A DNA stretch of 34,161 nucleotides from an uncultured Planctomycetaceae bacterium (GCA_964483755.1 CAZADC010000001.1:15158-49318), one strand, 5' to 3'. Shown: positions 17,711 through 34,080, numbered from the stretch's first letter. The notes: a model not told the origin generated them from the letters alone. Made by a program: numbers and translations.

Positions 17711-18517
17711 TCACGGCTGCAGCATGCCCTGACGATAGGTCTCCATGATGCGATCGACCAGGCGGGGCGAGAGCGGCGCCAGCAGCGCCAGGAACTTGCC
17801 CCCGGACGTGAAGATCAGCTCCGGACGGTACCGTCCGATCGTCGCGACGATTCGCCTCGCCACCACGTCCGGCGGCTGCGGTGTGCGGATGCCCTCGAAC
17901 GGTTCGGAGCCCGAGCGCCGCTCCCGGCGCCCCTCCACGCGGTCGAAAAAGTCCGTATCCGTCATGCCCGGGCACACGCAGGTGACGTTCACGCCGTGCG
18001 GGCGGAGCTCGACGCGCATCGAGTCGGTGAGCCCGACCACGGCGAACTTCGTCGCGCAATACGCCCCGTTCATCGGCGTCCCGCGCTTGCCGATCACCGA
18101 CGACACGTTGAACACGTGCCCCGACCCCTGGCGGATCATTACCGGCGCGGCCGCCCTGCACCCGTAGAACAGCCCGAAGAAATTCACGTCGAATATCCGC
18201 CGCATCTGCTCGTCGGTGATCTCGTGGACGGCGGCGTGCAGCCCGTATCCGGCGTTGTTTACGAGCACGTCCAGACGCCCGAATCGCTCGGCCGTGGCGT
18301 TCACGAGCTCGTTCACCTGCCGCTCGTCCGTCACGTCCGTCGGGGCGACGACGATGTCCGCCGCACCGGTATGTCGGCATCGCTCGGCCACCCGCTCCAG
18401 CTCATCCTCGCGCCGGGCGGCCAGCACCACCGCGCAGCGCCTCTCCGCCAGGCGCAACGCCGTCGCCTCGCCGATCCCGCTCGACGCGCCGGTCACGATC
18501 GCGACCCGCTCGCTCAT
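17711..18517 (-). CDS. Short-chain dehydrogenase/reductase (SDR) family oxidoreductase
   Basis: MSERVAIVTGASSGIG (TGxxxGxG) at the N-terminus, plus NNAG and the YCATK (YxxxK) catalytic motif. Confidence 0.9.
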   Translation of the reverse strand: MSERVAIVTGASSGIGEATALRLAERRCAVVLAARREDELERVAERCRHTGAADIVVAPTDVTDERQVNELVNATAERFGRLDVLVNNAGYGLHAAVHEITDEQMRRIFDVNFFGLFYGCRAAAPVMIRQGSGHVFNVSSVIGKRGTPMNGAYCATKFAVVGLTDSMRVELRPHGVNVTCVCPGMTDTDFFDRVEGRRERRSGSEPFEGIRTPQPPDVVARRIVATIGRYRPELIFTSGGKFLALLAPLSPRLVDRIMETYRQGMLQP

Positions 18518-20009
18518 CGACTTCTCCCTTCGCTGTCGCCTGCGTCCCGTTCGCCGTCGCCGTCGCTCGCCCGACGGCCAGGATCTCCACGGTGGTCAGC
18601 ACCGCCGCTGTGATCACGGCCGCCCAGAGGGCGAGCTTGATCCGCCGGACGAGGCGATCGATCGGCCGGCGGGTGCCCCCCGTGCTGCCCAGCCAGAGCA
18701 CGTAGCTGATCCGCCACGAGATCGCCCCGTGCCGCCAGTTGCCCTGCGACGCGGGTATCCCGTTTAGCCGGGCGACCTCCTGCAGCGACCGCGCGAACAC
18801 GGCGGCCCCTTCCGGCGTGATGCGCTCTCCGGTCGGCTCGGGCTCCGGTCCCGACGACCAGGCGGCGATGACGTCGCTCTGGCGCTCGAACCGCCGGCTG
18901 ATCCATCCGAACCCCAGCCACCAGATCATCGCCAGCGCAAGCATCGCCAGCCCGTGGGCGGTGAGCAGGTCCAGCCCGAGCAGGATCGCCGCGTCGGCGG
19001 CCAGGCCGACCAGCGTCACGCTGGCGACGGCGAACAGCGCCGAGTAGAAGATGTGGTGCTGGACGATGTGCCCGGCTTCGTGGGCGAAGATGCTCTCGAC
19101 CTGCCGCGGGTGCATGCGCTCCAGCAGGGCGTCGCTCAGCAGCACGTACCGGACGGGGGCGAGCAGGCCCATCACGGCGGCGTTGGCGATCACCCCGCCG
19201 CTGCGCCACACGAGGATGTCGCGGTAGCGGAGTTTGAGTCGCTCGCACGTCTCCTCCAGGCGCCGCCGCAGCTCGCCGTCCTCGAGCCGGCGCGTCCGCC
19301 AGATGCGGACGATCATCAGCGGCGCCGCCAGGAACACCCCCAGCGCGGTCGCCAAGGTGGCCGGTGCGATCACGTACGGCGCAAGCTCCTCGCCCAGCAG
19401 CGGCGGCAGGTAGAGCAGCCAGACCTCGTCGATCCCGATGATCAGCAGCACCGGGACCGCGACGAACAGCAGGTAGTGACGGGTGTTGTAGTCCAGGTAC
19501 TCGCGGAACGTCCAGATCGGCGGGGCGTCGTCGGCCCCCGCGGCCGCGTGGAGGCGGACCTCGCGATAGAACGGATACTCCGCCGCCCACGCCAGCTCCA
19601 GCGCGACGGCGAACGGGAGGAACATCGCCAGTGTGTCGATCAGCGGCACGCCCCCGACGTGCAGCCATTCGCGGACCCGGTCACCGAGACCGAGCAGGAC
19701 CAGCGCCGCCAGCCCGCCGACCAGCCAGAACCGCGTGAGCAGCGCCAGGGCGCGGTGCCGCCGGAAGATCGCGCCCGCGTTGCCGGGGCGCTCGGCCAGC
19801 GCGGCGGCCGCGCGCCGGGCGGCGAGTCCGCTGAGCCCCGCGGCGGTCGCCAGGTACGCCGCGAGCGACCCGCCGATCACCCATCCCCCCGCCAGAGGGG
19901 CGGTGAGGGGATCGAGCGTGAGCACGACGACAAACGCAATAAGCACAAGAACATGCATGGTCACCGCGATTGTAGCCCAGGCGGCGGGTCGGATCGGGGA
20001 GAAAATCAC
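18402..20009 (-). CDS. M48-family (HtpX/Ste24-like) integral-membrane zinc metalloprotease
   Basis: HEAGH (HExxH) at 19068-19082 (minus strand). There are several long hydrophobic segments on both sides. The low-complexity C-terminal tail overlaps the SDR start by 116 nt. The start could instead be the internal MHVLVL (M18). Confidence 0.75.
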   Translation of the reverse strand: MIFSPIRPAAWATIAVTMHVLVLIAFVVVLTLDPLTAPLAGGWVIGGSLAAYLATAAGLSGLAARRAAAALAERPGNAGAIFRRHRALALLTRFWLVGGLAALVLLGLGDRVREWLHVGGVPLIDTLAMFLPFAVALELAWAAEYPFYREVRLHAAAGADDAPPIWTFREYLDYNTRHYLLFVAVPVLLIIGIDEVWLLYLPPLLGEELAPYVIAPATLATALGVFLAAPLMIVRIWRTRRLEDGELRRRLEETCERLKLRYRDILVWRSGGVIANAAVMGLLAPVRYVLLSDALLERMHPRQVESIFAHEAGHIVQHHIFYSALFAVASVTLVGLAADAAILLGLDLLTAHGLAMLALAMIWWLGFGWISRRFERQSDVIAAWSSGPEPEPTGERITPEGAAVFARSLQEVARLNGIPASQGNWRHGAISWRISYVLWLGSTGGTRRPIDRLVRRIKLALWAAVITAAVLTTVEILAVGRATATANGTQATAKGEVDERAGRDRDRRVERDRRGDGVAPGGEALRGGAGRPARG

Positions 20010-20149
20010 GCCGGAGCGGAACCTGCGGGGTTCAATGATATAGACGAGTCCGCGCCGCCGCTGCGGCCTGAGAGCCGGCGGCGGGGCGGCATGACTCGGG
20101 CGCGACGGGCCGGCGCCCGAGCCGGAACACGGCCCGCGGGAGACTCATC

Positions 20150-20935
20150 ATGAAGCGAGCACTCTGGACAGTTGCGGCGCTGGCGGCGATCGCGCTGCTG
20201 GCGGGGGCGGCGACGGCGGGCGACGAGAACGCCCCGGCCGGCGGCAAGAAGAATCGCGCGAAGCCGGACAAGAAGGAAACGGTCCTGCGCGGACGCTACG
20301 CCCAGCTCGTCAAGGAGCTGGACATGACCGATGACCAGCAGGCGAAGCTCACCGAGCTCGTCAAACAGCACAACGAGGCGATGAAGGCGTGGACCGGCCG
20401 GCACGGCGAGCGGATGAAGGAGCTCCAGGCGCAGTTCAAGCAGGCGAAGACCGACGGGGACAAGGAGCAGGCGAAGCAGCTCCGCGAGCAGATGAAGGCG
20501 TTGTCGGCCGAGCGGGCGAAGATCGAGTCCGAGCACTGGAAGCAGGTCATGGGCATCCTCACGCCGGAGCAGGTGCAGGCCTGGCATGCTCACCAGTTCG
20601 AGGCGATGGCGATGCGCCTAGACAAGAAGGTTGACCTGACCGAGGATCAGAAGGCCCGGATTTCCGAGCTTGCGAAGGCCGCGGCCGCGCAGACGGCCGG
20701 GGCGGCGGACGCCAAAGCCCGGACACAGGCGAGGCGGGATTTCCACCAGGCCGTCATGAACGCCGTGCTCACCGACGAGCAGAAGGCGAAGCTGAAGCAA
20801 CCGGCCAAGGCCCGAGACAAGGGCGAGCAGAAGGCAAAGCCCAAGCACCGAAACAAGAAGCCCGACGCCGCCGCCGACGGGGTGGACGACGACGATGACG
20901 GCGACGAGGTGGAGGACGTCGGGCTGGGCATGTAG
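20150..20935 (+). CDS. Spy/CpxP-like periplasmic protein (LTxxQ repeats)
   Basis: Signal peptide MKRALWTVAALAAIALLAGAATA. There are four LTxxQ-type motifs (MTDDQQAKL, LTPEQVQAW, LTEDQKARI, LTDEQKAKL) in a Lys/Glu/Ala-rich helical protein. The tail is acidic (DDDDDGDEVED). Confidence 0.6.
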   Translation: MKRALWTVAALAAIALLAGAATAGDENAPAGGKKNRAKPDKKETVLRGRYAQLVKELDMTDDQQAKLTELVKQHNEAMKAWTGRHGERMKELQAQFKQAKTDGDKEQAKQLREQMKALSAERAKIESEHWKQVMGILTPEQVQAWHAHQFEAMAMRLDKKVDLTEDQKARISELAKAAAAQTAGAADAKARTQARRDFHQAVMNAVLTDEQKAKLKQPAKARDKGEQKAKPKHRNKKPDAAADGVDDDDDGDEVEDVGLGM

Positions 20936-21259: not shown

Positions 21260-22642
21260 ATGCGGTACGTTTCCACGCGAGGACAGGTCGAGCCGGTCGG
21301 CTTCCGGCAGGCGGTCATGATGGGCCTGGCCGACGACGGCGGGCTCCTCGTGCCCGAGGAGATTCCCGACGTCACCGATCGCCTCGACGCCTGGCGGGCC
21401 CTGGACTACCCGAACCTTGCCTACGAGGTCATCCGCCTCTTCGCCGACGACGTACCCGACGCCGACCTGCGCGAGCTGGTCGCAGGGGCATACGACGACG
21501 CCTTCGATCCCGCCCCGGCCGTGACGGTCCGTGTCGGCGATCTCCACGTGCTCGAGCTCTGGCACGGGCTGACGCTGTCGTTCAAGGACGTCGCGCTCCA
21601 GCTTCTCGGACGGCTGTTCGAGTACGTCCTCGCCGAGCGAGGCGGGCGACTGAACATCCTCGGCGCGACCAGCGGCGACACGGGCAGCGCCGCGATCTGC
21701 GGCGTCCGCGGCCGGGATCGCATCGACATCTTCATGATGCACCCGCACAACCGCGTCTCACCGATCCAGCAGCGCCAGATGACCACCGTGCTGGACGACA
21801 ACGTCCACAACATCGCCGTCGAGGGCAGCTTCGACGACTGCCAGAGCATCATGAAACAGCTCGCGAGCGACCTCGACTTCAAGCGTCCGTACTCGATCGG
21901 GGCGGTCAACAGCGTCAACTGGGCCCGCGTGCTCGCCCAGACGGTCTACTATTTTCACGCCGCCTTCCGCGTCACCGAATCGACCGGCGCCGAGTCGGTG
22001 CGGTTCTGCGTGCCGACCGGCAACTTCGGCAACATCCTCGCCGGCTGGTACGCCAGACGGATGGGCGCGCCCATCGAGCAGCTCATCCTCGCCACGAACG
22101 AGAACGACATCCTGGCGCGGTTCTTCAACACCGGCGTCTACGCACGCGGCGAGGTGCAGCCCACGCTCTCGCCGGCCATGGACATCCAGGTCGCCAGCAA
22201 CTTCGAGCGATATCTGTACTACCGCCTCGGCTGCGACGGCGACCGACTGCGGGCGACGATGGAGCAGTTCGGCGAGACCGGGCGGATTGACGCGGAGGGC
22301 GCGGACGAGGGCGCGGTCGATCCGGACATCACGGCCGGGACGGGCACGATGGACGACTGCCTGGACGCCATCCGCCGCTGCCACCGGCGGCACGGGTACC
22401 TGCTGGATCCGCACACTGCCGTGGGTGTCACCGTCGCGGAAGGTCAGCCCGTCGGCGCGCCGATCATCTGCGAGGCGACGGCGCATCCGGCCAAGTTCCC
22501 GGACGCCATCCGCAAGGCGACGGGCGAGGACCTGGCGCACCACCCGGACATCGACCGGCTGGAAGGGCTGCCCACACGCTGCGTGGTGCTGCCGAACGAC
22601 CCCGAAGCCGTGCGAAGCTTCATCATCGACGCCGTTGGATGA
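21260..22642 (+). CDS. thrC: Threonine synthase
   Basis: MRYVSTRG N-terminus, PLP-lysine motif LSFKDVALQ and GATSGDTGSAA. Length is 460 aa. AGGAG lies 6 nt upstream of the ATG. Confidence 0.9.
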   Translation: MRYVSTRGQVEPVGFRQAVMMGLADDGGLLVPEEIPDVTDRLDAWRALDYPNLAYEVIRLFADDVPDADLRELVAGAYDDAFDPAPAVTVRVGDLHVLELWHGLTLSFKDVALQLLGRLFEYVLAERGGRLNILGATSGDTGSAAICGVRGRDRIDIFMMHPHNRVSPIQQRQMTTVLDDNVHNIAVEGSFDDCQSIMKQLASDLDFKRPYSIGAVNSVNWARVLAQTVYYFHAAFRVTESTGAESVRFCVPTGNFGNILAGWYARRMGAPIEQLILATNENDILARFFNTGVYARGEVQPTLSPAMDIQVASNFERYLYYRLGCDGDRLRATMEQFGETGRIDAEGADEGAVDPDITAGTGTMDDCLDAIRRCHRRHGYLLDPHTAVGVTVAEGQPVGAPIICEATAHPAKFPDAIRKATGEDLAHHPDIDRLEGLPTRCVVLPNDPEAVRSFIIDAVG

Positions 22643-22688
22643 CCGCCCGCACCCGACACGAGACAGACCAGACGAGAACGGAGCGACC

Positions 22689-23483
22689 ATGATCCGGATT
22701 GCGATTACGGGAGCGGCGGGGCGGATGGGACGGCGCATCGCGGCGCTGGCGATCGAGTCCGAGCAGTTCGACGTCGTCTCGGCGCTCGAGTCGAGCGGCT
22801 GCGAGCACGTCGGGCGCGACGTCGGCGAGCTGGCCGGCGTCGGGACCTTCGGCGTCAAGGTCACCGAGGAGCTGACCGACACGCCCGCCGTGCTGATCGA
22901 CTTCTCCCTGCCCGAGGGCACGATGCGCTGGCTCGAAGTCTGCCGGTCGCACGGCGTCGCGATGGTCATCGGCACGACCGGGCTCACCGAGTCCCAGCAG
23001 GCCGAGGTCGCCGACGCGGGATCCAGCATCCCGATCGTCCACGCGGCCAACATGTCGGTCGGGATCAACGCGCTGCTGCGGGTCGTGGGCGACCTGGCGG
23101 CCGCGCTGGGCGAGGACTACGACGTCGAGATCGCCGAGACCCACCACCGCTTCAAGCAGGACGCCCCGTCCGGAACGGCGATCGCCCTGGCGAGGGCGGT
23201 CTGCGCCGCGCGCGGCAGGGAGTACGGCGACGCGGCCGTGCTGGGACGCGGCGGAAGACAGCCGCGCAATTCCGGCGAGATCGGCATGCACGCCCTGCGG
23301 GTCGGGGACACCGTCGGTGAGCACTCGGTGCACTTCGGCAACCTGGGCGAGACGATCACGATCTCTCACTCCGCCCACACGCGGGATACCTTCGTCCGCG
23401 GGGCGCTGCGGGCGGCGGCGTGGGTCAGCGAGAAGCCCGCCGGCCTGTACGACATGCAGGACGTCCTGGGGCTCCGCAAGTAG
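22689..23483 (+). CDS. dapB: 4-hydroxy-tetrahydrodipicolinate reductase
   Basis: MIRIAITGAAGRMGR Rossmann N-terminus and ETHHRFKQDAPSGTA signature. I chose the ATG at 22689. The upstream part of the 398-aa track ORF overlaps thrC out of frame. Confidence 0.92.
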   Translation: MIRIAITGAAGRMGRRIAALAIESEQFDVVSALESSGCEHVGRDVGELAGVGTFGVKVTEELTDTPAVLIDFSLPEGTMRWLEVCRSHGVAMVIGTTGLTESQQAEVADAGSSIPIVHAANMSVGINALLRVVGDLAAALGEDYDVEIAETHHRFKQDAPSGTAIALARAVCAARGREYGDAAVLGRGGRQPRNSGEIGMHALRVGDTVGEHSVHFGNLGETITISHSAHTRDTFVRGALRAAAWVSEKPAGLYDMQDVLGLRK

Positions 23484-23504
23484 ACGCAGGAAGGCGGAAC
23501 GACG

Positions 23505-24737
23505 ATGAGCGGCGCGAGCCGACAGCACGTGCTGGACGCGATCGACCACGTCCCGCCGGACCGCGTGCCGGTCGACTTCGGCGGGCATCGAAGCAGCGGG
23601 ATCATGGCGATCGCTTACGCGAAGCTGCGGGAGCATCTCGGCCTGCCCCGCCGCCGGCCGCGAGTGTACGACATCGTCCAGCAGATCGCGATCATCGACG
23701 ACGACGTGCTCGACCGCTTCGGCGTGGACACGATCGAGCTCGGCCGGGGGTTCTGCGAGGACGAGTCATGGTGGAAGGAATGGCGCCTGCCGGACGGCAC
23801 GGAGTGCCTGATTCCCGCCTGGATGGACGTGCGCGCGGAGGGCGGCGACTGGATCCTGCACTCGCAGTCCGGCCGGCCCGTCGGTGTGCACAAGGCCGGT
23901 TCGCTGTACTTCGAGGCGAACCACTGGCCGTACCTCGACGGCGTCCCCGACGACCTGACCGACCTGCCCCGCGCGATGGAGGACGTCATCTGGGCGATCC
24001 CGTCCCCGCCCGGGCCGTGCGCGGCGACGCCGGAGGACCTGGCCGCCGGCGCGGCGAGATTGCGCGCGTCGACCGGCCGGGCGATCGTCGCGCTGTTCGG
24101 CGGCAACCTGATGGAGTGGGGACAGTTCCTCTGTCGCAACGACAACTTCTACGTGCTCCTCGCGGGCGAGCTCGACAGGGCGCACGCGCTGCTCGACCGG
24201 CTGACGGAGATTCACCTCGCGTCGCTGGAGACGTTTCTCGGCGCGGTCGGCGAGCACATTGACGTCATCCTGTTCGGCGACGACCTGGGCATGCAGACCG
24301 GCCCGCAGATATCCCCAACGATGTACCGCGAATTCTTCAAGCCGCGCCACGCGGCGCTTTGGCGGCGGGCGAAGGAGCTGGCGGACGTGAAGGTCCAGCT
24401 GCACTGCTGCGGCGGCGTCCGTCCGCTGCTGGACGACCTGATCGACGCCGGGCTCGAGGCGATCAACCCCGTCCAGACGAGCTGCGCCGGCATGGAGCCC
24501 GGCGCACTGAAGGCCGACTTCGGCGACAGGATCTGTCTGTGGGGCGGCGGGTGCGACACGCAGACCGTCCTGGGGCAGGCGACGCCGAAGGAGATTCGCG
24601 ACCACGTCCTTCGCCGCCTGGAGACGCTCTCGCCCGACGGGGGGTTCGTCTTCCAGCAGGTGCACAACGTCATGGCCGACGTGCCGCCCGCCAACGTCGT
24701 CGCGATGTTCGATGCCGTCGCGGAGTTCAACCGTTGA
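23505..24737 (+). CDS. Uroporphyrinogen-decarboxylase (URO-D) fold family protein, second paralogue
   Basis: 410 aa with URO-D/MtaA-like segments (ILFGDDLGMQTGPQISPTMYREFFKP, LHCCGG, LEAINPVQ). Only distantly similar to the 4937-6040 product. Confidence 0.6.
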   Translation: MSGASRQHVLDAIDHVPPDRVPVDFGGHRSSGIMAIAYAKLREHLGLPRRRPRVYDIVQQIAIIDDDVLDRFGVDTIELGRGFCEDESWWKEWRLPDGTECLIPAWMDVRAEGGDWILHSQSGRPVGVHKAGSLYFEANHWPYLDGVPDDLTDLPRAMEDVIWAIPSPPGPCAATPEDLAAGAARLRASTGRAIVALFGGNLMEWGQFLCRNDNFYVLLAGELDRAHALLDRLTEIHLASLETFLGAVGEHIDVILFGDDLGMQTGPQISPTMYREFFKPRHAALWRRAKELADVKVQLHCCGGVRPLLDDLIDAGLEAINPVQTSCAGMEPGALKADFGDRICLWGGGCDTQTVLGQATPKEIRDHVLRRLETLSPDGGFVFQQVHNVMADVPPANVVAMFDAVAEFNR

Positions 24738-24804
24738 CGAGCGTCCAGGCCGGTCATCCCCCGGCATTTACGGCACGGTCCCGTCGTTGTTCGGAGTGAA
24801 TCCC

Positions 24805-25953
24805 ATGCACTGGAACATGGAGGAGCTGTCACGGCCGCCGGAGAGACACCCGGCGCCGGCATTCGAGGAGCCGGGCGTCGAGGCGCTGTTCTTCGACGCG
24901 CCGGAGTTCGGCGGCAGGCCCACGCGGAGCTTCGCGTGGATCGGATTGCCCGAGGCGGCGGTCCGCGAGCCGGTTCCGGGGATGGTTCTCGTCCACGGCG
25001 GCGGGGGCACGGCCTTCGCCGAGTGGGTCCGCCTCTGGACGTCACGCGGGTACGCCGCCATCGCGATGGACACCTGCGGGTGCGTGCCCGGCGGGGAGAG
25101 CGGCAAGCGCCCGCGTCACGAGATGGGCGGACCGGCCGGCTGGGGCGACTTCGCCCGCGTCGACGAGCCCGTGACCGAGCAGTGGGCATACCACGCCGTC
25201 GCCGACGTGATCCTCGCCCACTCGCTTCTGCGATCCCTGCCGCAGGTCGACGCGGAGCGGATCGGCGTCACGGGCATCTCCTGGGGCGGGTACCTCACCT
25301 GCATCACGGCCGGGGTTGACCGGCGCTTCCGCTTTGCCGTTCCCGTCTACGGCTGCGGGTTCCTCGGCGACAACTCCGTTTGGCTTCAGAACTTCCGCGA
25401 GCTGGGCCCGCAGCGCGCCGGCCGCTGGCTGGAGCTGTGGGACCCCTCACGGTACCTTCCGGCCGCAGGTCTTCCCATGCTGTGGGTGACGGGCACGAAC
25501 GACTTCGCCTATCCCATGGACTCCCTGCGCAAGAGTTACCGCCTGCCGCCCGGACAGCGCACACTGTGCGTCCGTGTCCGCATGCCGCACGGGCACGGCG
25601 GGGCGGGGGAGAAGCCGCCCGAGATCGCCGTCTTCGCCGACAGCGTTCTGCGCGGCGGCGACCCGCTGGCGAGGATTCCAGACAGTCGAACCGACGACCG
25701 GGACGTCGAGGTGCGGTTCCGCGCCGACGTGCCGATCGTCCGGGCGGAGTTGTGCTTCACGGCCGACACGGGCCCGTGGCCGGAGCGCGAATGGCGCGTC
25801 CGACCGGCCGAGCTGGACGCCGGCGCAGGACGGGTTCGCGCGACGGTGCCGGACGATGCCGCCGTCTGGTACGTGAACCTGCTCGACGAGCGCGGCTGCG
25901 TCGTGAGCGCCGAGCACGTCGAACGCGGCGAGGAGAGCGGAGGGCGGTCGTGA
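24805..25953 (+). CDS. Alpha/beta-hydrolase, acetyl-xylan-esterase / dienelactone-hydrolase-like
   Basis: MVLVHGGGG oxyanion-type segment, nucleophile elbow GISWGG (GxSxG) and a later MPHGHG segment. The ATG at 24805 leaves a 67-nt gap after the previous stop. Confidence 0.6.
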   Translation: MHWNMEELSRPPERHPAPAFEEPGVEALFFDAPEFGGRPTRSFAWIGLPEAAVREPVPGMVLVHGGGGTAFAEWVRLWTSRGYAAIAMDTCGCVPGGESGKRPRHEMGGPAGWGDFARVDEPVTEQWAYHAVADVILAHSLLRSLPQVDAERIGVTGISWGGYLTCITAGVDRRFRFAVPVYGCGFLGDNSVWLQNFRELGPQRAGRWLELWDPSRYLPAAGLPMLWVTGTNDFAYPMDSLRKSYRLPPGQRTLCVRVRMPHGHGGAGEKPPEIAVFADSVLRGGDPLARIPDSRTDDRDVEVRFRADVPIVRAELCFTADTGPWPEREWRVRPAELDAGAGRVRATVPDDAAVWYVNLLDERGCVVSAEHVERGEESGGRS

Positions 25954-26633
25954 TCGAGCACCCCTGGGACATCACGCCCAAGCAGGCCGTCCGTCTTCAG
26001 CGCGAGCTGGCGGTCAACGTGCGCGTCGAGCCGCTGGAAGAACCGGTCGACACGGTAGCGGGGACGGATTGCGCCTTCCTTCCGGGCGAGCGGATTCTCG
26101 CGGCCGCCGTGCTGTGCGACGTCCGTACGATGAAAGTCATCGGGTCGGCCCACGTTGTCCGCCCGTGCCGGTTCCCATACGTATCAGGGTTGTTGAGCTT
26201 CCGGGAAGCCCCGGCCGTCATCGAGGTGGTCGAAGCCCTCCCCGAGCGTCCTGACCTGCTCATGTGCGACGGGCAGGGCGTGGCGCACCCCCGGCGGCTG
26301 GGGCTGGCCAGTCACGTCGGGTTGTGGCTTGACCTGCCGACGATCGGCGTCGCCAAGAGCCGCCTGTGCGGCGAGCAGCGCACGCCGGGCGAGCGACGCG
26401 GGTGTCGGACGCAGCTCCGCCACGACGAAGAGCTTGTCGGGTGCGTGGTGCGGACGCGGACGGGCGTCCGCCCGCTGTTCGTGTCCGTCGGACACCGCGT
26501 GTCGCTGGACGACGCGGTGCGGTGGACGCTGCGCGGTGCGCGGTCGGTCCGCCTGCCGGAGCCCACGCGCCAGGCCCACCTGCTCGTGACGCGGCTGAAG
26601 AAGGAGATCGCGGACGGCGCGCGGCGTGCGTGA
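25950..26633 (+). CDS. nfi: Endonuclease V
   Basis: The GTG start overlaps the previous stop (GTGA 25950-25953). Motifs: VAGTDCAF, DGQGVAHPRRLGLASHVG and PTIGVAKSRL. The 227-aa length matches typical Nfi. Confidence 0.85.
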   Translation: MIEHPWDITPKQAVRLQRELAVNVRVEPLEEPVDTVAGTDCAFLPGERILAAAVLCDVRTMKVIGSAHVVRPCRFPYVSGLLSFREAPAVIEVVEALPERPDLLMCDGQGVAHPRRLGLASHVGLWLDLPTIGVAKSRLCGEQRTPGERRGCRTQLRHDEELVGCVVRTRTGVRPLFVSVGHRVSLDDAVRWTLRGARSVRLPEPTRQAHLLVTRLKKEIADGARRA

Positions 26634-26871
26634 GCGTCGAAGTTCAAAGCGCAAAGCTACAGTCGGCAGTTGGGGCAGTCGGGACAGTCGGGGGACATCC
26701 ATACGGGTTTTCGTTCGCTCTGCGGGCAGGGCGGACCATCACGCTTCGGAAGCTGCCAGCGTGCAGTCACCTGCATGGCGTCCTACGAGGTACGACGAGG
26801 GCCAGTCGGTTTCGGGACCTTCGCCCGGGCGCGCAAATCCGTATTTGTACGCGCTGCGGGAACTCCGGGGA

Positions 26872-26899
26872 TTGCGAACTGTGCATGGGGGCTTATAAT
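26872..26899 (+). promoter_or_regulatory. Candidate sigma70-type promoter of the HEAT/kinase/STAS/Mla operon
   Basis: TTGCGA (26872-26877), a 16-nt spacer, then perfect TATAAT (26894-26899). It is 28 nt upstream of the ATG at 26927. It lies in a visibly less GC-rich 293-nt intergenic region. Confidence 0.4.
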
Positions 26900-26926
26900 C
26901 CGCTGTCGTCGGCCTATCGCTCGTTT

Positions 26927-27316
26927 ATGAAAGGACAGCCCTTGCGGACATCCCTGTCCATTCCGGCGTGCCTGGCGGCGATGCTCGTCGCGGGGTGCGC
27001 GCCGTCGGGAGACGACCTGTACCGCCAGATGCAGGGCGAGGACCCGGACGAGCGGATCGAGGCGATCGTGCAGGCCGGTCGGCAGCGGGACCGCGACGCC
27101 GTACCGCACCTGGTGGACCGCCTGACCGACAGCGAAGCGGACGTGCGGTTCTTTGCAATCGCCTCGCTCGAGCGAATCACCGGAGAGACGATGGGATACG
27201 AGTACTACGCGCCGGCCCCACAGCGCCATGAGGCCGTCGAGCGGTGGCGGGAATGGCTGCGGAGTCGCGCGCCCGCCGCCACGCGCCCGGCGTCCCAACC
27301 GGCGGGGGCGTCATGA
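26927..27316 (+). CDS. HEAT-repeat lipoprotein
   Basis: Signal peptide with lipobox (AAMLVAGC). PBS-lyase/HEAT-like repeats are present: DERIEAIVQAGRQRDRDAVPHLVDRLTDSEADVRFFAIASLERITG. The stop overlaps the next start (ATGA). Confidence 0.6.
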   Translation: MKGQPLRTSLSIPACLAAMLVAGCAPSGDDLYRQMQGEDPDERIEAIVQAGRQRDRDAVPHLVDRLTDSEADVRFFAIASLERITGETMGYEYYAPAPQRHEAVERWREWLRSRAPAATRPASQPAGAS

Positions 27317-27765
27317 AGCCGCCGCCCGAGCGCCCGGTGCGGATCGAGATATTCTCCACGTCCGCGCACCTGCCGATCGTGCGGGGCGCCGTGGAGAAGA
27401 CGTGCGAGCTGCTGGGGTTCGACGACGAGACGGCCGGGTCGATCGTCCTCAGCGTCGACGAGGCGCTGACCAACGTCATCCGCCACGCCTACGACGGCGC
27501 CGACGACCGGCGGATCGAAGTCGAGCTCGCGTCCACGGCCGGGGGCGACGGGCTGCGCATCACGGTGCGCGACGACGGGACGTACGTCGATCCTGCGCAG
27601 ATGCGCCCGCGCGACCTGAAGGACGTGCGTCCCGGCGGGCTGGGCGTGCACATCATCCGCGAGTGCATGGACGACGTGAGCTACGCTCGGCGGGACAACG
27701 GCGGCACCGAACTGACGATGACCAGGCGCCTGTCGGCTGAACGAAAGGAAGGGCCGTCTCCATGA
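27313..27765 (+). CDS. Anti-sigma regulatory factor type Ser/Thr kinase (RsbW/SpoIIAB-like, HATPase_c)
   Basis: N-box EALTNVIRHAY, G1 VRDDGT, G2 GGLGVHII, about 150 aa. It has ATGA overlaps at both ends. Confidence 0.8.
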   Translation: MKPPPERPVRIEIFSTSAHLPIVRGAVEKTCELLGFDDETAGSIVLSVDEALTNVIRHAYDGADDRRIEVELASTAGGDGLRITVRDDGTYVDPAQMRPRDLKDVRPGGLGVHIIRECMDDVSYARRDNGGTELTMTRRLSAERKEGPSP

Positions 27766-28100
27766 CAGCGGCCGTCAAGAACATCCGTTGGAACGACAAT
27801 GCCGCGATCGTGGAGGTCGCCGGCGACATCGACCTGAACCGCAGCGGCGATTTCCAGAACGAGCTGCTGACGGTCCTCGACCGTCGCCCGGACCGGCTGA
27901 TCATCGACCTGAGCGACGTCGGATACATGGACTCGTCGGGCGTGGCGTCGTTGGTGAAGCTGCTCGCCCGGGCGAAGAAGGGCGGGTTCACGCTGGCGCT
28001 GGTCGGGCTCCAGCCGCGGGTGCGGAGCGTCTTCGAGATCACCCGCCTGGACAGCGTGTTCAATATCTACGCCGACGAGCAGGAGGCGCTGGAGCAGTGA
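27762..28100 (+). CDS. STAS-domain anti-sigma-factor antagonist (RsbV/SpoIIAA/MlaB-like)
   Basis: 112 aa. LIIDLSDVGYMDSSGVASLV carries the conserved DSSG phospho-acceptor motif (27930-27941). The stop overlaps the MlaE GTG start (GTGA 28097-28100). Confidence 0.85.
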   Translation: MTAAVKNIRWNDNAAIVEVAGDIDLNRSGDFQNELLTVLDRRPDRLIIDLSDVGYMDSSGVASLVKLLARAKKGGFTLALVGLQPRVRSVFEITRLDSVFNIYADEQEALEQ

Positions 28101-28921
28101 CCGAACCGGACGGCGACAAGACGAACGCCGTCGAGCGCCTCGGCGGGCGCGTGCTGACGGGCCTGAGCTACGTCGGCGGGATGACGCTCCTGCTCGGCAC
28201 GGTGCTCGGGTGGACGCTGCGCGGGCTGGTCTCGAAGAAGGCGAGGTTCTCGGGCAAGGCGGTGACCGAGCAGATGGTCCGCGTGGGCGTCCGCAGCGTG
28301 GGCATCGTGGTGCTGGTGCAGCTGTTCATCGGCGTGATCCTCGCGCTGCAGATGACCCCGCCCCTCGAGCCGTGGGGGCAGGTGGACAAGGTCGCCAACA
28401 TCATCGGCGTGGCGGGCTTCCGCATGCTGGGCCCGATCATCACAGCCGTCGTGCTCAGCGGGTTCGCCGGGGCGTCCATCGCGGCCGAGCTGGGAACCAT
28501 GGTCGTCGCCGAGGAGATCGAGGCGCTGGAAGCGATGGCGCTGAACCCGATCCGCTTCCTCGTGGTCCCGCGCGTCCTGGCGACGCTGGTCATGATGATC
28601 CTGCTGACCGTGGTGGCCGACTGGATGATCGCGCTGGGGGGCTACGCCACCTCGTGCCTGGTTCTGGGCCCGGAGGCGTACGTCGGATACTGGGACCGCA
28701 TGCAGCAGCAGCTCCGCTATCGCGATTTCTACACCGGGCTGATCCAGGCGGGCGTGTTCGGGCTGCTCATCAGCGTGATCGCGTCCGGCGAAGGGCTCAA
28801 CGTCCGCGGCGGCGCCGAGGGTGTCGGGCGGGCGACGACGATGACCGTGGTGTACTCGATCGTGGCGATCATCGCCTCGGCGTGCGTGTTCACCGTGGTG
28901 TTCTACGTGTTCGGGCTGTAG
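28097..28921 (+). CDS. mlaE: MlaE-family ABC transporter permease
   Basis: Multi-TM protein of about 274 aa. It has MlaE-like segments: GVRSVGIVVLVQLFIGVILALQ, LGPIITAVVLSGFAGASIAAELGTM and EEIEALEAMALNP. Confidence 0.85.
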   Translation: MTEPDGDKTNAVERLGGRVLTGLSYVGGMTLLLGTVLGWTLRGLVSKKARFSGKAVTEQMVRVGVRSVGIVVLVQLFIGVILALQMTPPLEPWGQVDKVANIIGVAGFRMLGPIITAVVLSGFAGASIAAELGTMVVAEEIEALEAMALNPIRFLVVPRVLATLVMMILLTVVADWMIALGGYATSCLVLGPEAYVGYWDRMQQQLRYRDFYTGLIQAGVFGLLISVIASGEGLNVRGGAEGVGRATTMTVVYSIVAIIASACVFTVVFYVFGL

Positions 28922-28964
28922 GGCCGCAGCGACCTGCGACCCTCGATCATGTCGAAAGCGTTCG

Positions 28965-29819
28965 ATGGATGAGAAGCGGAACAATCCGGAACCGGTCATC
29001 CGCGTCGTCGACCTCGTGAAGCGCTACGACGGCAGGGCGGTGCTGGACGGCGTGCAGCTCGACGTTCACCCCGGCGAGACGCTCGTTGTCATGGGCGGGT
29101 CCGGCTGCGGAAAGAGCACGCTGCTGCGGCACATGGTCGGCGCGATCGTGCCGGAGGAGGGGCACGTCGAGCTGCTGGGCTGCAATCTCAGCACGGCCGA
29201 GGAGGAGCAGCTCGACGCCCTGCGCAAGCGGTTCGGCATCCTGTTCCAGTCCGGGGCGCTGTTCAACTCGATGACCATCGGCGAGAACGTCGCCCTTCCG
29301 CTCACCGAGCACAGCACGCTGGACGAGGCGACCATCGAGATCATGGTCACCATCAAGCTGGAGCTTGTCGGGCTCCGCGAGGCGGCCGACCGCATGCCGG
29401 CCGAGATCTCCGGGGGGATGAAGAAGCGCGCCGGGCTCGCGCGGGCGATCGCGCTCGACCCGGAAATCCTGTTCTACGACGAGCCGTCAGCCGGTCTCGA
29501 CCCCGTCACGTCGGCGGAGATCGATCAGCTCATCATCGACCTGTCGCGGAAGCTCGGCGTCACCAGCGTGGTGGTGACCCACGAGATGGATTCCGCCTTC
29601 CGCATCGCCGACCGGATGGTGATGCTCGACAAGGGGCGGGTGCTGAAGATCGCCCCGCGGGAGGAGTTCGAGCGCATCCGCGACGGCGAACCGACCGGCG
29701 AGCCGGCCGAGGACCTGATCCGCCAGTTCCTCCGCGGCGATTCGGAAGGACCGATCACCCGGCGACGCCGCAGCACGGGCTACGCCGAGGACATCCTGGA
29801 AATCGGCGGACGCCCGTGA
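28965..29819 (+). CDS. mlaF: MlaF-family ABC transporter ATP-binding protein
   Basis: Walker A GGSGCGKST, ABC signature ISGGMKKRAGLARA and Walker B ILFYDEPSAGLD. A C-terminal extension of about 40 aa follows the NBD. Confidence 0.9.
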   Translation: MDEKRNNPEPVIRVVDLVKRYDGRAVLDGVQLDVHPGETLVVMGGSGCGKSTLLRHMVGAIVPEEGHVELLGCNLSTAEEEQLDALRKRFGILFQSGALFNSMTIGENVALPLTEHSTLDEATIEIMVTIKLELVGLREAADRMPAEISGGMKKRAGLARAIALDPEILFYDEPSAGLDPVTSAEIDQLIIDLSRKLGVTSVVVTHEMDSAFRIADRMVMLDKGRVLKIAPREEFERIRDGEPTGEPAEDLIRQFLRGDSEGPITRRRRSTGYAEDILEIGGRP

Positions 29820-29861
29820 CCCGGCGACCCGCGATGCAGCACACCGTTCGGAGATGACGAC

Positions 29862-31217
29862 ATGCCGAGAAAGCAACGAAGCAAACTTGCCGCCGGACTG
29901 TTCTCGCTGGCCTGCCTGCTCGCCCTGCTGGGCGTGGTGATCTGGCTGGGAGCGGCCGATATCTTCAAGACGACCTACCAGCGGGCGGTGTTCTACGCCG
30001 ACGTGTCGGACGGAAGCCTCGGGCTGAAGACCGGCAGCTTCGTCCGCATCAACGACGCGCAGGTGGGACGGATCGTCGACGTGCAGTTCAACCCGGACGA
30101 CGGGCGGACCTACTACACCGCCGAGATCGAGCAGGCGGGCGCGGAGATTCATCGCGACGGCAAGGCGGTGGCGTCGGCGGGATTCATCGGCGGATCGCAG
30201 CTCGTGGTGCTGTCGCGCGGCAGCGAGTCGGAGCCGCTCGCGACGGCCGACAACCCGCTCGAGGTGACCCCCGCCGGGTTCATGGACGCCCTGACGCAGC
30301 TCAGCGACAAGGTCGGCGCCGAGCTGGACCGCGAGGACCCCGAGGCGCTGCTGGGCAAGGTGCACGCGATTCTCGACGGGCTGGACACGGCCGCCGGGAC
30401 GGTGTCGGAGATCACGACGGCGCTTCAGCAGGAGATCGACGCCGAGCGCGCCGAGGCGCTGCTGGGCAAGATTCACACGGCCATGAACGACGTCAAACGG
30501 ATCACCTCCTCGCTTCGCCAGGAGATGTCGCGCGACGAGGAGGGCTCGCTGCTGGCGAAGGTTCACGGCACGGCTGACAACGTCCGCGACACGTCGGAGT
30601 TCCTCGTCGGCGAGATCGACCGCGAGGCCGAGGGGTCGGCGATGGGCAAGGTGCATGCGGGCCTCGACGACGTCACCGAGATGACCGCCGACGCGAAGCC
30701 GAAGGTCGGCGAGGCGCTGACGGCGGTACGCGACACGGCCAAGCGCCTCGACCGGTACACCGAGGAGGATCTCGGCGACCTGCTGGCGAAGATGCGGGAC
30801 GTCGGCGACAAGGTGCTGGAGATCGCCGAGAACCTGCGCGAGGTGTCGGTCGAGGCGAGGGAAGTCATCACCGTCAACCGCGTTCAGATCGACGAGATGA
30901 TCGACAACATGGCCCTCGTCTCGGCGGAGCTCAAGGCGACGGCGAAGGAAGTCCGGCGCAACCCGTGGCGGCTGTTCTACCGTCCGGACGACGAGGAGCT
31001 TCGCTCGCAGAACATCTACGACGCGGCGCGGGCTTTCAGCCAAGGGGCCGAGCAGCTCGACCAGGCGGTCACGAAGCTGCGCCGGCTCGCCGAGGCGCAT
31101 CCCGAGGGCGTGCCGGCCGACGACGAGCAGCTCGAGCGCATCCGGCGGCAGGTGGAGGAGAGCTTCTCGAACTTCACCAAGGTCGAGCGGGCGCTGTGGG
31201 ACGAGCTGACGAAGTAG
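29862..31217 (+). CDS. mlaD: MlaD/MCE-family protein with long repeat-containing helical C-terminal extension
   Basis: N-terminal TM anchor (LFSLACLLALLGVVIWLG). MCE core: GLKTGSFVRINDAQVGRIVDV...GFIGGSQLVVL. About 280 further residues follow, including 5 copies of an LLGKVH-type repeat. Confidence 0.75.
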   Translation: MPRKQRSKLAAGLFSLACLLALLGVVIWLGAADIFKTTYQRAVFYADVSDGSLGLKTGSFVRINDAQVGRIVDVQFNPDDGRTYYTAEIEQAGAEIHRDGKAVASAGFIGGSQLVVLSRGSESEPLATADNPLEVTPAGFMDALTQLSDKVGAELDREDPEALLGKVHAILDGLDTAAGTVSEITTALQQEIDAERAEALLGKIHTAMNDVKRITSSLRQEMSRDEEGSLLAKVHGTADNVRDTSEFLVGEIDREAEGSAMGKVHAGLDDVTEMTADAKPKVGEALTAVRDTAKRLDRYTEEDLGDLLAKMRDVGDKVLEIAENLREVSVEAREVITVNRVQIDEMIDNMALVSAELKATAKEVRRNPWRLFYRPDDEELRSQNIYDAARAFSQGAEQLDQAVTKLRRLAEAHPEGVPADDEQLERIRRQVEESFSNFTKVERALWDELTK

Positions 31218-31225
31218 TCGCGTGC

Positions 31226-31243
31226 AGGCGCGGCGCCGCGCCT
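31226..31243. terminator. Perfect 18-nt GC palindrome between convergent genes
   Basis: aggcgcggc|gccgcgcct (31226-31243) followed by tt. It lies between the MlaD stop (31217) and the vWA gene stop (31305). Confidence 0.3.
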
Positions 31244-31304
31244 TCGTCCGAGCGACGCAGTAATGCGCCGGTCGGCCGTTCGCGTCCGCCGGCGGGCCGG
31301 GCGA

Positions 31305-33242
31305 TCAGTCAGCGTCCTTCTTCGGGCGGACGTGGATCAGTTCGCCGCCGTAGTTCTCGGCGAGCTCTCGCATGTCCGCGACGGCGGCGCCGGCGCGTTC
31401 GCCGATGAGCACACAGTAGAGTCGCAGCGAGTAGGTGTCGTCGGGGTCCATCTCCTCCAGCATCTTGCGGATGTCGTCAAAGCCCTCGGTCTTCCCGTCG
31501 GTGATCAGGAACACCGTGTGGTGCCCGGACTCGTATCGCAGGCACATCGTCACGCGCTCGAATCGGCTGGCGGGACTCTGCGCCTCGGTCGGGCGAATCC
31601 TGTTCACGGCGCTGACGCCCGCTCGAATGGCGGCGTCGAGTTCCTCCTGGTCGCGCAGGTGCAGTCGGTAGTACTCCGAGCCCGATGGCGAGCTGAAGGG
31701 AGCGACGGCGAGTCCCTGCCCGATGCGCAGCTCCTTCAGCGCCTCGGCGACCTCCCCCTTCGCGACGTCCAGGGCGCCGGCGTCGGCCATGCTCGGCGAG
31801 CCGTCGATGAGGAAGTACACCTGCTCGGCCCGGTAGCTTCGCCCGAACAGTCGGATCATGTGGGCCTCGTTCCGGCGGAAGAGGTTCGCACGCTTCACGA
31901 GGACTCCCATGCGCGGCGTCTGGTGGCCGTCGAACAGCAGCTTCGCATCGCTTCGCGCCGGGGCCTCGATTTCGTGGTCCGCGATGATCCCGCCGATGCG
32001 GATGGGCAGCTCGCGCTCGAGCTTCCCGAGATTCCTCAACTCCGTCCTCGTCGCTTCGGCGGTCACGAGGAACCCGTCGCGCGACAAGGCCTCCACGCGG
32101 TACGTATCACGTCCGGGGACGGGAGACACGTCTTTCAACCAGAGGTCCCAAGAAAGGTACTTGCCGTCGAGGTCCGTCTCCCTTCGCCTCTTGAGCGCGT
32201 CACGGTACAGCTTGTTGAAACGTTGCTTCTCCTCGGGCGCCATGGACTGCCAGTGCGGAAGGGCGTCGGGCGGTTCGATGTCTTCGCCGAGCAGCCAGGC
32301 CGCCATCGTGCGCGGGGTCGCGACGGGGCTGTCGGCGATCCTCGCCCTGTATTCCTCGGCGCGCTTCGACCGCTCCGCCGTGCTTCTGACGGGGACCGGC
32401 TGCGGGTAGGTCCGGTGGGAACCCGAGTGCAGGCCGTGGGGCCGCTCGTCCGCGCCTTGGCGAGGGCGCGGTCCGGCGGCTGTCGCCAGTTCGCCGGGGT
32501 CCTTGGGCTGGTCCGTCCCCCGATCGCAGTGGCGGCAGCGGATCGTCTTCGCACCGCCGCAGTAGTGACAGGGCCCGAGGCGCCCGGCCCCCTGACAGCG
32601 GGAGCAGCGGCGCATGCCCTTGTGAGGGGAGTTCTCGCAGTCCGGGCACGGCATGGCGCCGTCGCCGTCGCATCGGCTGCAATCGCCGTGGTAATCCCGA
32701 CCGTCGCCCCCGCACGCCGTGCATTCGATCTCCCCCGCCCCGTTGCATCGCCCGCAGGCGACGTACCCGTTCGTGCAGTGCGGGCATCGCTCCTTGCCCG
32801 TCGCGTTGCAGTACGTGCAGCGCATCCGGCCGGTGTTGAAGCACCAGGGGCAGCGCTTCTCGCGCGTCTCCCGCGGGCGGGTCGCCGCGGCGGGCGGCTT
32901 CTCCGCCAGGGTCAGGCGGGCGCGGATCAGCACGCGATCGGCGCCCGATGGGGACGACTCCAGCGCCTCGCGGTAGCGTTGGGCGGCCGCCTCGAACTCC
33001 CGGCGGGCCAGCAGCCGTTCCGCCTCGTTGAAGGCGTCGAGTCCCGTCCTGTCGATGCGGGTCACGTCGGCGTGGGGCTTGGTGACGGTTCGATCGTCGA
33101 TCTCGAACGTCACGGTTCGATCGGTCGCCGCGGTGATCCGGATGTCCTCGTAGGCAATTCCCCGCACCCACACGGTGTCTGCGGATGCGGCACAGGTTGC
33201 GATATGCAGCACGCATGCCACTGAGAAAAGAGATGTTTTCAC
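31305..33242 (-). CDS. Secreted protein: N-terminal domain + 10x CxxC DnaJ-type zinc-ribbon region + middle domain + C-terminal vWA domain
   Basis: I chose the GTG at 33240-33242, preceded by AAGAGG (plus strand cctctt at 33251-33256). The signal peptide is KTSLFSVACVLHIATCAASA|D. The Cys-rich block lies at ~32520-32860. The vWA MIDAS DGSPS is at 31791-31805 (minus strand), with VFLITDGKTEG later. Confidence 0.7.
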   Translation of the reverse strand: MKTSLFSVACVLHIATCAASADTVWVRGIAYEDIRITAATDRTVTFEIDDRTVTKPHADVTRIDRTGLDAFNEAERLLARREFEAAAQRYREALESSPSGADRVLIRARLTLAEKPPAAATRPRETREKRCPWCFNTGRMRCTYCNATGKERCPHCTNGYVACGRCNGAGEIECTACGGDGRDYHGDCSRCDGDGAMPCPDCENSPHKGMRRCSRCQGAGRLGPCHYCGGAKTIRCRHCDRGTDQPKDPGELATAAGPRPRQGADERPHGLHSGSHRTYPQPVPVRSTAERSKRAEEYRARIADSPVATPRTMAAWLLGEDIEPPDALPHWQSMAPEEKQRFNKLYRDALKRRRETDLDGKYLSWDLWLKDVSPVPGRDTYRVEALSRDGFLVTAEATRTELRNLGKLERELPIRIGGIIADHEIEAPARSDAKLLFDGHQTPRMGVLVKRANLFRRNEAHMIRLFGRSYRAEQVYFLIDGSPSMADAGALDVAKGEVAEALKELRIGQGLAVAPFSSPSGSEYYRLHLRDQEELDAAIRAGVSAVNRIRPTEAQSPASRFERVTMCLRYESGHHTVFLITDGKTEGFDDIRKMLEEMDPDDTYSLRLYCVLIGERAGAAVADMRELAENYGGELIHVRPKKDAD

Positions 33243-33399
33243 GGTTCTTGCCTCTTTGTTCGAGATATGGCTCAGCTCCGCCCGATTTTGCCCCACGGGC
33301 CCCCGACCTGGCTCCTTTATACCGCGCAGATCCATAGATTCAAGCGCACATCCCGCGTTTGGGAAAGAGCCCCGCGCGTCGCCCTGCCGGCCGGCAGGG

Positions 33400-34080
33400 T
33401 CAATATTCGTAATCCTGGCGGACGGGGCTGGGCAGGACCGGGCGGTCGAGGACGATGTTCTCCGCGCCGCCGCCGGTGAAGCCCACGATGCCGCGCCCGC
33501 CGCCGTTGTCGCGGAGGTTGCGCTGCTCGGTGTCGGTCAGCCCGCCGAAGACGTCGCCGAGCCCGGGGTCGCGCTGGTTGAGCAGATGCTCCATCGGCGG
33601 AATGAGGTTGTCGTTGGAGAACTCGCCGGCGAACACTTGCATGCGTCCCTGCGGCGTGTTGAGGTTCCACGTGCCGGTCTCGCCGCTGAGCCCCATGCCC
33701 ATGTCGCCGCTGTAGCCGACCTGTCCGGAGGTGCCCCGGATGCTCGCGACGGCGACCGGGGTGGCCACCCGGAAGTCGTTGCGCCCGGCCTCGCGGTCCA
33801 CCTTGGCGTCGACCGTGCCGTACTTGAGCCCGACGCGAGCTTTGGCGGTGTCGCCCTCCTTGCGGAACTCGCTGATTCCCGCCTTGGTCGCGCTGTTGAC
33901 GGTCACCCGGCCGCGATCGGCGAACTGCAGCACGACCTTCCCGCCGAGCCCGGTGCGGATGATCGTCAGCTCCCCGAGCTCGTCGCCTTCCTCGATGGGG
34001 CGCCACTTTCCCTCGGCGCCCTCCTCGACGGCGACGAGCTTTTGCGCCGGCCCGGAAACCGAAACCACCGTCGCCGTCAT
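33400..34080 (-). CDS. FecR-domain-like protein (probably 5'-truncated by the window edge)
   Basis: FecR-like pattern: GDELGELTIIRTGLGGKVVLQFADRGRVTVNSAT...VGLKYGTVDAKV...DFRVATPVAVASIRGTS. The same frame stays open from 34081 to 34161 (EAPPAEAADARPADDADPVADGLADGA), so the true start may lie beyond the window. Confidence 0.5.
   Translation of the reverse strand: MTATVVSVSGPAQKLVAVEEGAEGKWRPIEEGDELGELTIIRTGLGGKVVLQFADRGRVTVNSATKAGISEFRKEGDTAKARVGLKYGTVDAKVDREAGRNDFRVATPVAVASIRGTSGQVGYSGDMGMGLSGETGTWNLNTPQGRMQVFAGEFSNDNLIPPMEHLLNQRDPGLGDVFGGLTDTEQRNLRDNGGGRGIVGFTGGGAENIVLDRPVLPSPVRQDYEY

Follow-up and report, generated by a model that had tools for sequence, protein, structure and literature searches.

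A kinase–STAS pair ahead of mlaE in a planctomycete: a candidate partner switch for an Mla/MCE-type lipid transporter

Introduction

What does a partner-switching kinase control when the genes behind it encode a lipid transporter instead of a sigma factor? The question is raised by six co-directional genes on the plus strand, at positions 26927-31217, of a stretch of 34,161 nucleotides (nt) from an uncultured Planctomycetaceae bacterium (GCA_964483755.1 CAZADC010000001.1:15158-49318; G+C about 68%), which is called the window throughout. The genes encode, in this order, a HEAT-repeat lipoprotein, an RsbW-like kinase, a STAS protein, MlaE, MlaF and a long MlaD. Our reading, to which we give a probability of roughly 0.45, is that the kinase and the STAS protein are a partner-switching pair dedicated to an MCE/Mla-type lipid ATP-binding cassette (ABC) transporter of a Phycisphaerae-like planctomycete. 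The arrangement, which recurs in about 60 related Planctomycetota genomes, suggests that these bacteria use phosphorylation to switch the movement of lipids between their two membranes.

Post-translational regulation of Mla/MCE transporters is an open question. In Escherichia coli, Thr52 of the STAS subunit MlaB lies at the centre of the interface with the ATPase MlaF, the substitution T52E weakens binding, and MlaB is needed for the stable association of MlaF (PMC7367683). The same work put forward phosphoregulation at Thr52 as a question still to be answered, no kinase being known (PMC7367683). The locus family described here offers a natural candidate kinase.

Results

A lipoprotein–kinase–STAS–MlaE unit is conserved across the group

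When the cluster was rechecked, the six co-directional genes claimed by the first-pass annotation were placed exactly as it had them, together with their overlaps, the two intergenic gaps and the DSSG motif of the STAS protein. The stop codon of the HEAT gene (26927..27316) and the start codon of the kinase gene (27313..27765) share the ATGA at 27313-27316, the kinase stop and the start of the STAS gene (27762..28100) share the ATGA at 27762-27765, and the STAS stop and the GTG start of mlaE (28097..28921) share the GTGA at 28097-28100. This GTG has an AGGAGG 10 nt before it, and as a start codon it fits the N-termini of 66 orthologues. Gaps of 43 nt and 42 nt then lead from mlaE to mlaF (28965..29819) and from mlaF to mlaD (29862..31217), respectively.

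One genome per bacterial species was scanned with the kinase alignment, which yielded 514 relatives. The best 80 of the 514 loci were kept, nearly all of them labelled Planctomycetota and mostly Phycisphaerae, and the six window proteins were mapped onto them; the close homologues of the kinase and the STAS protein are found in metagenome-assembled genomes of Phycisphaerae/Planctomycetota. With genomes counted where the neighbour could be evaluated, the STAS gene follows the kinase gene in 74 of 76, the HEAT lipoprotein gene precedes the kinase gene in 70 of 74, and mlaE follows the STAS gene in 60 of 65. The median gap is -4 nt between lipoprotein and kinase genes, which overlap in 46 of 76 pairs, -4 nt between kinase and STAS genes, and +16 nt between STAS and mlaE genes. 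The flanks vary between clades; the commonest neighbour is guaA, divergent and present in about 23 loci, and 11 loci have a convergent UbiA-like gene. Chance adjacency was ruled out, as the four-gene core is present in 60 of the 65 evaluable genomes despite these variable flanks. Throughout the group, the genes for the small exported lipoprotein, the kinase, the STAS protein and MlaE stay together as a compact unit in which translation is often coupled.

The kinase and the phospho-acceptor keep the residues for phosphotransfer

The kinase (150 amino acids; Pfam HATPase_c_2, 3.4e-27) is an RsbW/SpoIIAB-like GHKL serine kinase. Its best NCBIfam models are RsbW (54.9 bits, cutoff 145) and SpoIIAB (45.3 bits, cutoff 135), both scores being under the equivalog cutoff, and its sequence matches in the PDB include RsbW (6m36_A), SpoIIAB and Rv1364c. 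The N-box and G-boxes that had been ascribed to it are present and near-invariant among homologues: D49-E50-A51...N54...H58-A59-Y60 (N-box) and R106-P-G-G-L-G-V-H113 (G-box) do not vary among 28 close homologues, and the residues of both boxes are at least 95% conserved over 81 orthologue calls.

The STAS protein is a single domain of 112 amino acids (Pfam STAS, 1e-23), in which the codons of the phospho-acceptor motif D57-S58-S59-G60 were located at 27930-27941. Residue 58 is Ser in 68 of 76 orthologues and Thr in the other 8, the loop Y-M-D-S-S-G is conserved, and G60 is invariant. Ser58 carries the same number as the serine that is phosphorylated in SpoIIAA of Bacillus subtilis. Judging from these motifs, the kinase would phosphorylate the STAS protein on Ser58.

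The same residues bear on a very improbable alternative, in which the STAS protein is a constitutive, MlaB-like structural subunit and the kinase-like protein is an ATP/ADP sensor or scaffold that works as a phosphorylation-independent switch. MlaB of E. coli does function without a known kinase (PMC7367683), and STAS signalling that does not depend on phosphorylation is known from stressosomes, according to the title of PMC3944199. Yet a Ser/Thr acceptor in 76 of 76 orthologues, a conserved DSSG loop and a kinase that keeps both its N-box and its G-box are hard to explain without phosphotransfer.

The transporter keeps a docking motif, and the kinase and the STAS protein are sometimes fused ahead of MlaE

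The MlaE-family ABC permease (274 amino acids) matches Pfam MlaE (PF02405) at 1e-61 and TIGR00056 at 1e-53. The MlaF-type ABC ATPase (284 amino acids, with a C-terminal extension) matches Pfam ABC_tran at 1.2e-29, and its best NCBIfam model is MlaF (PRK11831, 5.5e-62). Its best PDB matches are MlaF chains, and it aligns end to end, extension included, with the MlaF of solved MlaFEDB complexes. In this alignment the C-terminal motif Y273...I277-L278 (29781-29798) falls on Tyr261, Leu265 and Leu266 of E. coli MlaF, which insert into a groove built jointly by MlaF and MlaB (PMC7367683). Both the extension and a motif of this Tyr/Leu/Leu type are conserved in 21 orthologues of the window ATPase.

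The MlaD/MCE protein is long (451 amino acids) and matches Pfam MlaD (PF02470) over residues 52-117 at 8.5e-9 (36 bits, cutoff 25.1). It starts with a membrane helix, continues with a single MCE domain and ends in a repeat-containing extension of about 330 amino acids that, from its sequence, is probably helical; TIGR00996, the actinobacterial Mce family, matches residues 12-307. LLGKVH-type repeats were seen at amino acids 163, 200 and 260 (region 150-290), with periods of about 30-37 and 97 residues. None of the three transporter proteins reaches the equivalog cutoff of its E. coli-type model (MlaE, MlaF or MlaD). With an MlaE permease, an MlaF-like ATPase and an MCE protein in one operon, the system is an Mla/MCE-type transporter. 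No MlaC or MlaA domain was found in any sizeable open reading frame (ORF) of the window. A long MlaD without MlaA and MlaC has been proposed to bridge the periplasm (PMC10665443), and the window MlaD fits this type; the missing MlaC and MlaA genes are accounted for because the long MlaD belongs to the proposed MlaA/MlaC-independent bridge type.

Three features tie the STAS protein to this transporter: the conserved, often codon-overlapping slot of its gene before mlaE, the STAS-MlaE order known from Brucella, and the groove motif of MlaF. By analogy with MlaB and with the MlaE-fused STAS domain of Brucella, the unphosphorylated STAS protein would dock on the cytoplasmic face of the transporter. 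The contact would be made by the helical face centred on Ser58, and the site would be the helical subdomain of MlaF together with its C-terminal 'handshake' groove. Once docked, the STAS protein may stabilise or activate the MlaF2E2 complex, and phosphorylation of Ser58 would break the contact, so that transport would be shut down through lower assembly or activity. An unlinked PP2C phosphatase would restore the STAS protein. The kinase and the transporter would compete for one face of the STAS protein, which would make the pair a partner switch that acts on the transporter and not on a sigma factor.

A STAS-family profile was searched against 1.84 billion representative proteins, and the best 150 relatives were examined. 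The search found four mutually diverged kinase–STAS fusions of 267-285 amino acids (related loci L085 5001-5804, L086 499-1338, L087 839-1696 and L089 5001-5834), each of which is encoded directly 5' of an MlaE gene, and one of the fusions recurs in independent assemblies. The small gene 5' of each fusion encodes, where annotated, a HEAT lipoprotein. As the fusions always lie 5' of MlaE, the kinase and the STAS protein act as one unit that belongs with MlaE.

That one unit stands at the transporter would suit equally a scheme of classical polarity, in which the kinase itself binds and inhibits MlaE/MlaF, unphosphorylated STAS protein removes the kinase, and phosphorylation of the STAS protein lets the kinase return. 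This scheme follows canonical RsbW/RsbV logic, and the linkage to MlaE fits it as well as it fits docking by the STAS protein. We nevertheless regard it as rather improbable. In the known precedents that join STAS to an ABC transporter it is the STAS part that touches the transporter, both in MlaB-MlaF (PMC7367683) and in the STAS-MlaE fusion (PMC12436622). The immediate and often overlapping neighbour of mlaE is the STAS gene, not the kinase gene, and MlaF keeps the groove-docking motif that is linked to a bound STAS subunit.

High-scoring multi-STAS proteins were considered as kin of the module and rejected, being not near MlaE. One protein of unusual architecture, also away from MlaE, is encoded at L090 854-2545: its 563 amino acids hold three STAS domains followed by a HATPase_c_2 kinase.

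No consistently linked sigma factor accompanies the pair

Sigma factor and PP2C domains were found in no sizeable ORF of the window. The statement of the first-pass annotation that the window contains no sigma factor, PP2C phosphatase, MlaC or MlaA agrees with this domain scan. For the flanks, ORFs from every locus were grouped into clusters, and a FliA-like sigma factor and a response-regulator-SpoIIE protein served as probes of the loci. No consistently neighbouring sigma gene was found, FliA/WhiG-type genes being present in 4 of about 78 loci. These four genes (L037 9895-10806, L047 10080-10874 and L082 6860-7762, all on the minus strand, and one in L038) lie 3' of MlaE on the opposite strand, convergent with it, in loci that hold only the core.

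These counts bear on the reading of the pair as an ordinary sigma-regulating module, in which the kinase is an anti-sigma factor for an unlinked sigma factor, the STAS protein is its antagonist, and mlaE is merely co-expressed, for example within an envelope-stress programme. The kinase and the STAS protein are closest, in sequence and fold, to RsbW/SpoIIAB and RsbV/SpoIIAA, a FliA/WhiG-type sigma gene is convergent 3' of MlaE in 4 loci, and in a few genomes the pair is found away from MlaE. Still, we judge this reading unlikely. A sigma factor is absent from the window and from 74 of the about 78 related loci, and no sigma gene follows the pair in the exceptional genomes either. Whereas the classical sigma gene follows the kinase gene, the downstream slot is here taken by mlaE in 60 of 65 genomes, often with overlapping codons, and the order kinase-STAS puts the STAS gene, not the kinase gene, beside the presumed target. 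Moreover, it is FlgM, and not an RsbW-type kinase, that normally sequesters sigma factors of the FliA type.

Two other observations in the window concern sigma or envelope signalling. The ORF at 33400-34080, on the minus strand, encodes a FecR domain (9.4e-13), which is of a type often tied to ECF sigma signalling, and no sigma gene is seen before the window ends. About 6 kb 5' of the cluster, at 18402-20935, an M48/BlaR1-like membrane peptidase gene (minus strand) lies beside a gene for an LTXXQ-family (CpxP/Spy-like) periplasmic protein (plus strand), a combination of envelope-stress type.

Identity of the STAS protein and other points that weigh against a transporter target

Several observations weigh against a pair dedicated to the transporter, the first of which concern the STAS protein itself. 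Both its sequence and its predicted fold are those of a canonical anti-sigma-factor antagonist, and in the PDB it matches TM1442, RsbV and SpoIIAA best. It scores 83.5 bits with TIGR00377 (anti-sigma factor antagonist), above the cutoff of 53.45, and 46.4 bits with the SpoIIAA equivalog model, under the cutoff of 114.75. The MlaB model NF033618 gives it 32.7 bits against a cutoff of 90, and the match to the MlaB sequence in the PDB is weak (E 0.002). The AlphaFold2 model of the protein (predicted local distance difference test, pLDDT, 93.8) superposes best on SpoIIAA and RsbV from kinase complexes, with template modelling (TM) scores of 0.8-0.9, and MlaB is absent among its top 50 structural matches. 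Because the sequence match to MlaB is weak and MlaB is missing from the top fold matches, the protein falls outside the MlaB family in the narrow sense; from sequence and model together, it is RsbV/SpoIIAA-like, unlike MlaB. Its proposed role as the MlaB equivalent, made in the first-pass annotation, is thus supported in so far as a small STAS-only protein is encoded in one operon with MlaE and MlaF; the score with the MlaB model stays below its cutoff, and the top 50 fold matches lack MlaB.

The gene order gives further counterweights. MlaF, the proposed docking partner, follows MlaE in 18 of 57 genomes, and MlaD follows MlaF in 13 of 14. As MlaF adjoins MlaE in so few genomes, the conserved unit is lipoprotein–kinase–STAS–MlaE and not a six-gene operon; the six-gene form, in which MlaF and the long MlaD follow in the same operon, is the version of the window's nearer relatives. 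The linkage predicted for related genomes is therefore strongly kept for kinase, STAS and MlaE, but extends to MlaF and MlaD in only about a third of them. In a few genomes (L007, L034, L042 and L051) the pair or the kinase is apart from MlaE.

The searches for partners add three points. Among the 150 best STAS relatives there is no STAS-MlaE or STAS-MlaF fusion. A single-chain AlphaFold2 model of the natural fusion P0244 has both domains folded (pLDDT 81) with a predicted TM score (pTM) of 0.51, and the docking of the two domains relative to each other is not fixed. No linked cognate phosphatase was found, the tblastn probe detecting PP2C near the cluster in L015 and L033 only.

Some of these loci deserve description in their own right. 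The pairs at L007 7001-7797 and L034 2-666 are close relatives, with 55-57% and 64-67% identity to the window proteins, respectively. Downstream of the pair lies an alanine dehydrogenase gene in L007 and an EamA-like transporter gene in L034; no MlaE gene was found in either within the fetched flanks (about 6 kb 3' of the pair), and L007 also has no HEAT gene there. As to phosphatases, L015 encodes at 7873-9810, on the minus strand, a response-regulator-SpoIIE(PP2C)-STAS protein that is convergent with the cluster, 27 bp after mlaD, and is a possible cognate phosphatase, and L033 encodes a dCache-SpoIIE protein 3.6 kb downstream. One distant STAS relative from the profile search adjoins a response-regulator-SpoIIE phosphatase, a canonical component of partner switching.

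The HEAT-repeat lipoprotein and other features of the window

The first gene of the cluster encodes a small HEAT-repeat lipoprotein of 129 amino acids (Pfam HEAT_2, 1.4e-7) with the lipobox LVAGC (Cys24). The lipobox Cys is kept in 72 of 74 orthologue calls, the exceptions being one truncated gene call and one Asp. The lipoprotein may serve as a sensor, or it may sit in the periplasm and partner or cap the MCE bridge.

Upstream of it, 28 nt 5' of the first gene, a promoter-like sequence TTGCGA-16 nt-TATAAT was found on the plus strand at 26872..26899, a match to a sigma-70-like consensus only. It is the one promoter-like match in 26500-31450, where 0.3 were expected from shuffled sequences. 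The cluster and its 3' side gave no Rfam matches and no plus-strand terminators, and the three terminator-like matches that were detected are all on the minus strand, inside coding sequence.

Further upstream, the order thrC-dapB-endonuclease V-HEAT gene (window 21260-26633) is common to L003 and L085, and compared with these two loci the window adds a URO-D-like gene and an esterase gene between dapB and the endonuclease V gene. Downstream, at 31305-33335 on the minus strand, a 676-amino-acid ORF is convergent on mlaD; it has coding-like codon bias and no Pfam match, and contains a dense run of CxxC motifs that resembles zinc-ribbon or DnaJ-type zinc-finger repeats. Apart from the cluster, a plus-strand ORF of 3222 amino acids at 7930-17598, with SdrD_B (15 stretches), CarboxypepD_reg, CARDB, cadherin-like and Big_9 repeats, probably encodes a huge surface or adhesin-like protein.

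Discussion

The question with which we began, namely what a partner-switching pair does ahead of lipid-transport genes, is best approached from the conserved placement of the pair at MlaE. Full-text literature searches returned no kinase-linked Mla/MCE system beyond the hypothesis of MlaB phosphoregulation. We put forward, tentatively and as something we would not ourselves bet on, that this may be the first MCE/Mla transporter to be switched by serine phosphorylation of its STAS subunit, with a dedicated kinase controlling its assembly in Phycisphaerae and the co-translated, periplasmic HEAT lipoprotein feeding in the status of the envelope.

With a candidate kinase encoded alongside the STAS protein and the transporter, and in some genomes joined to the STAS protein in one chain, the hypothesis of MlaB phosphoregulation becomes directly testable with a few recombinant proteins. 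If the pair does serve the transporter, membrane transporters would join the outputs of partner switching as a new class, with lipid traffic being controlled instead of transcription. The locus family would also add regulatory parts to the picture of a 'minimal MlaEFD bridge' in non-proteobacterial diderms.

The closest comparison for the transporter is the MlaFEDB complex of E. coli, Pseudomonas aeruginosa and Acinetobacter baumannii. Both have MlaE, an MlaF with the 'handshake' extension, an MCE protein and a single-domain STAS protein in the same operon, and Thr52 of MlaB is equivalent to Ser58 of the window STAS protein. MlaB differs in having no known kinase, in being very divergent from RsbV-type STAS proteins and in being encoded last in mlaFEDCB, whereas the window STAS protein is a canonical antagonist of DSSG type whose gene lies immediately ahead of mlaE and which comes with a kinase. 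In addition, the window has no MlaC or MlaA, and its MlaD has 451 amino acids against 183.

For the pair, the closest comparison is with RsbW-RsbV and SpoIIAB-SpoIIAA of Bacillus, which likewise join a HATPase_c_2 GHKL kinase to a STAS protein with Ser at the same position, encoded by adjacent, coupled genes. Unlike the Bacillus modules, the window operon has no sigma or PP2C genes, has the reversed order (kinase, then STAS) and has an ABC permease gene downstream.

In Brucella abortus, Mpc is a chimeric Mla-Pqi system whose MpcE has an N-terminal STAS domain homologous to MlaB (PMC12436622). Mpc resembles the present system in the position of STAS just N-terminal to MlaE, in an elongated MCE protein that has been proposed to span the periplasm, in the absence of MlaC and in having a lipoprotein in the operon. 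It differs in that STAS is fused to MlaE and no kinase has been described, while the window STAS protein is separate (fused to the kinase in relatives) and keeps a conserved acceptor; the window lipoprotein is of HEAT-repeat type, and kinship with PqiC is not shown.

The minimal MlaEFD system of Veillonella parvula (PMC10665443) shares the core of MlaE, MlaF and long MlaD without MlaA or MlaC. It differs in having no STAS protein, and the main text of PMC10665443 makes no mention of a kinase. In Supplementary Data 1 of the same study by Grasekamp et al., most Phycisphaerae are given as having unlinked MlaE and MlaD with no clustered MlaB (PMC10665443), and one Phycisphaerales genome is given with an 'MlaB' gene beside MlaE (PMC10665443). 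The unlinked MlaE and MlaD of Phycisphaerae in that survey agree with a core unit that ends at MlaE.

Partner switching with a target other than transcription is represented by HenR/All4160 of Anabaena, BtrU/V/W of Bordetella and SypE/SypA of Vibrio fischeri, in which a phosphorylatable STAS protein acts on an enzyme, on secretion or on biofilm formation. These modules differ from the one described here in that none has an ABC/MCE lipid transporter as its target and their kinases and phosphatases are otherwise arranged. The arrangement in the window joins two known kinds of system, namely partner switching with a non-sigma output and the STAS subunit of Mla transporters.

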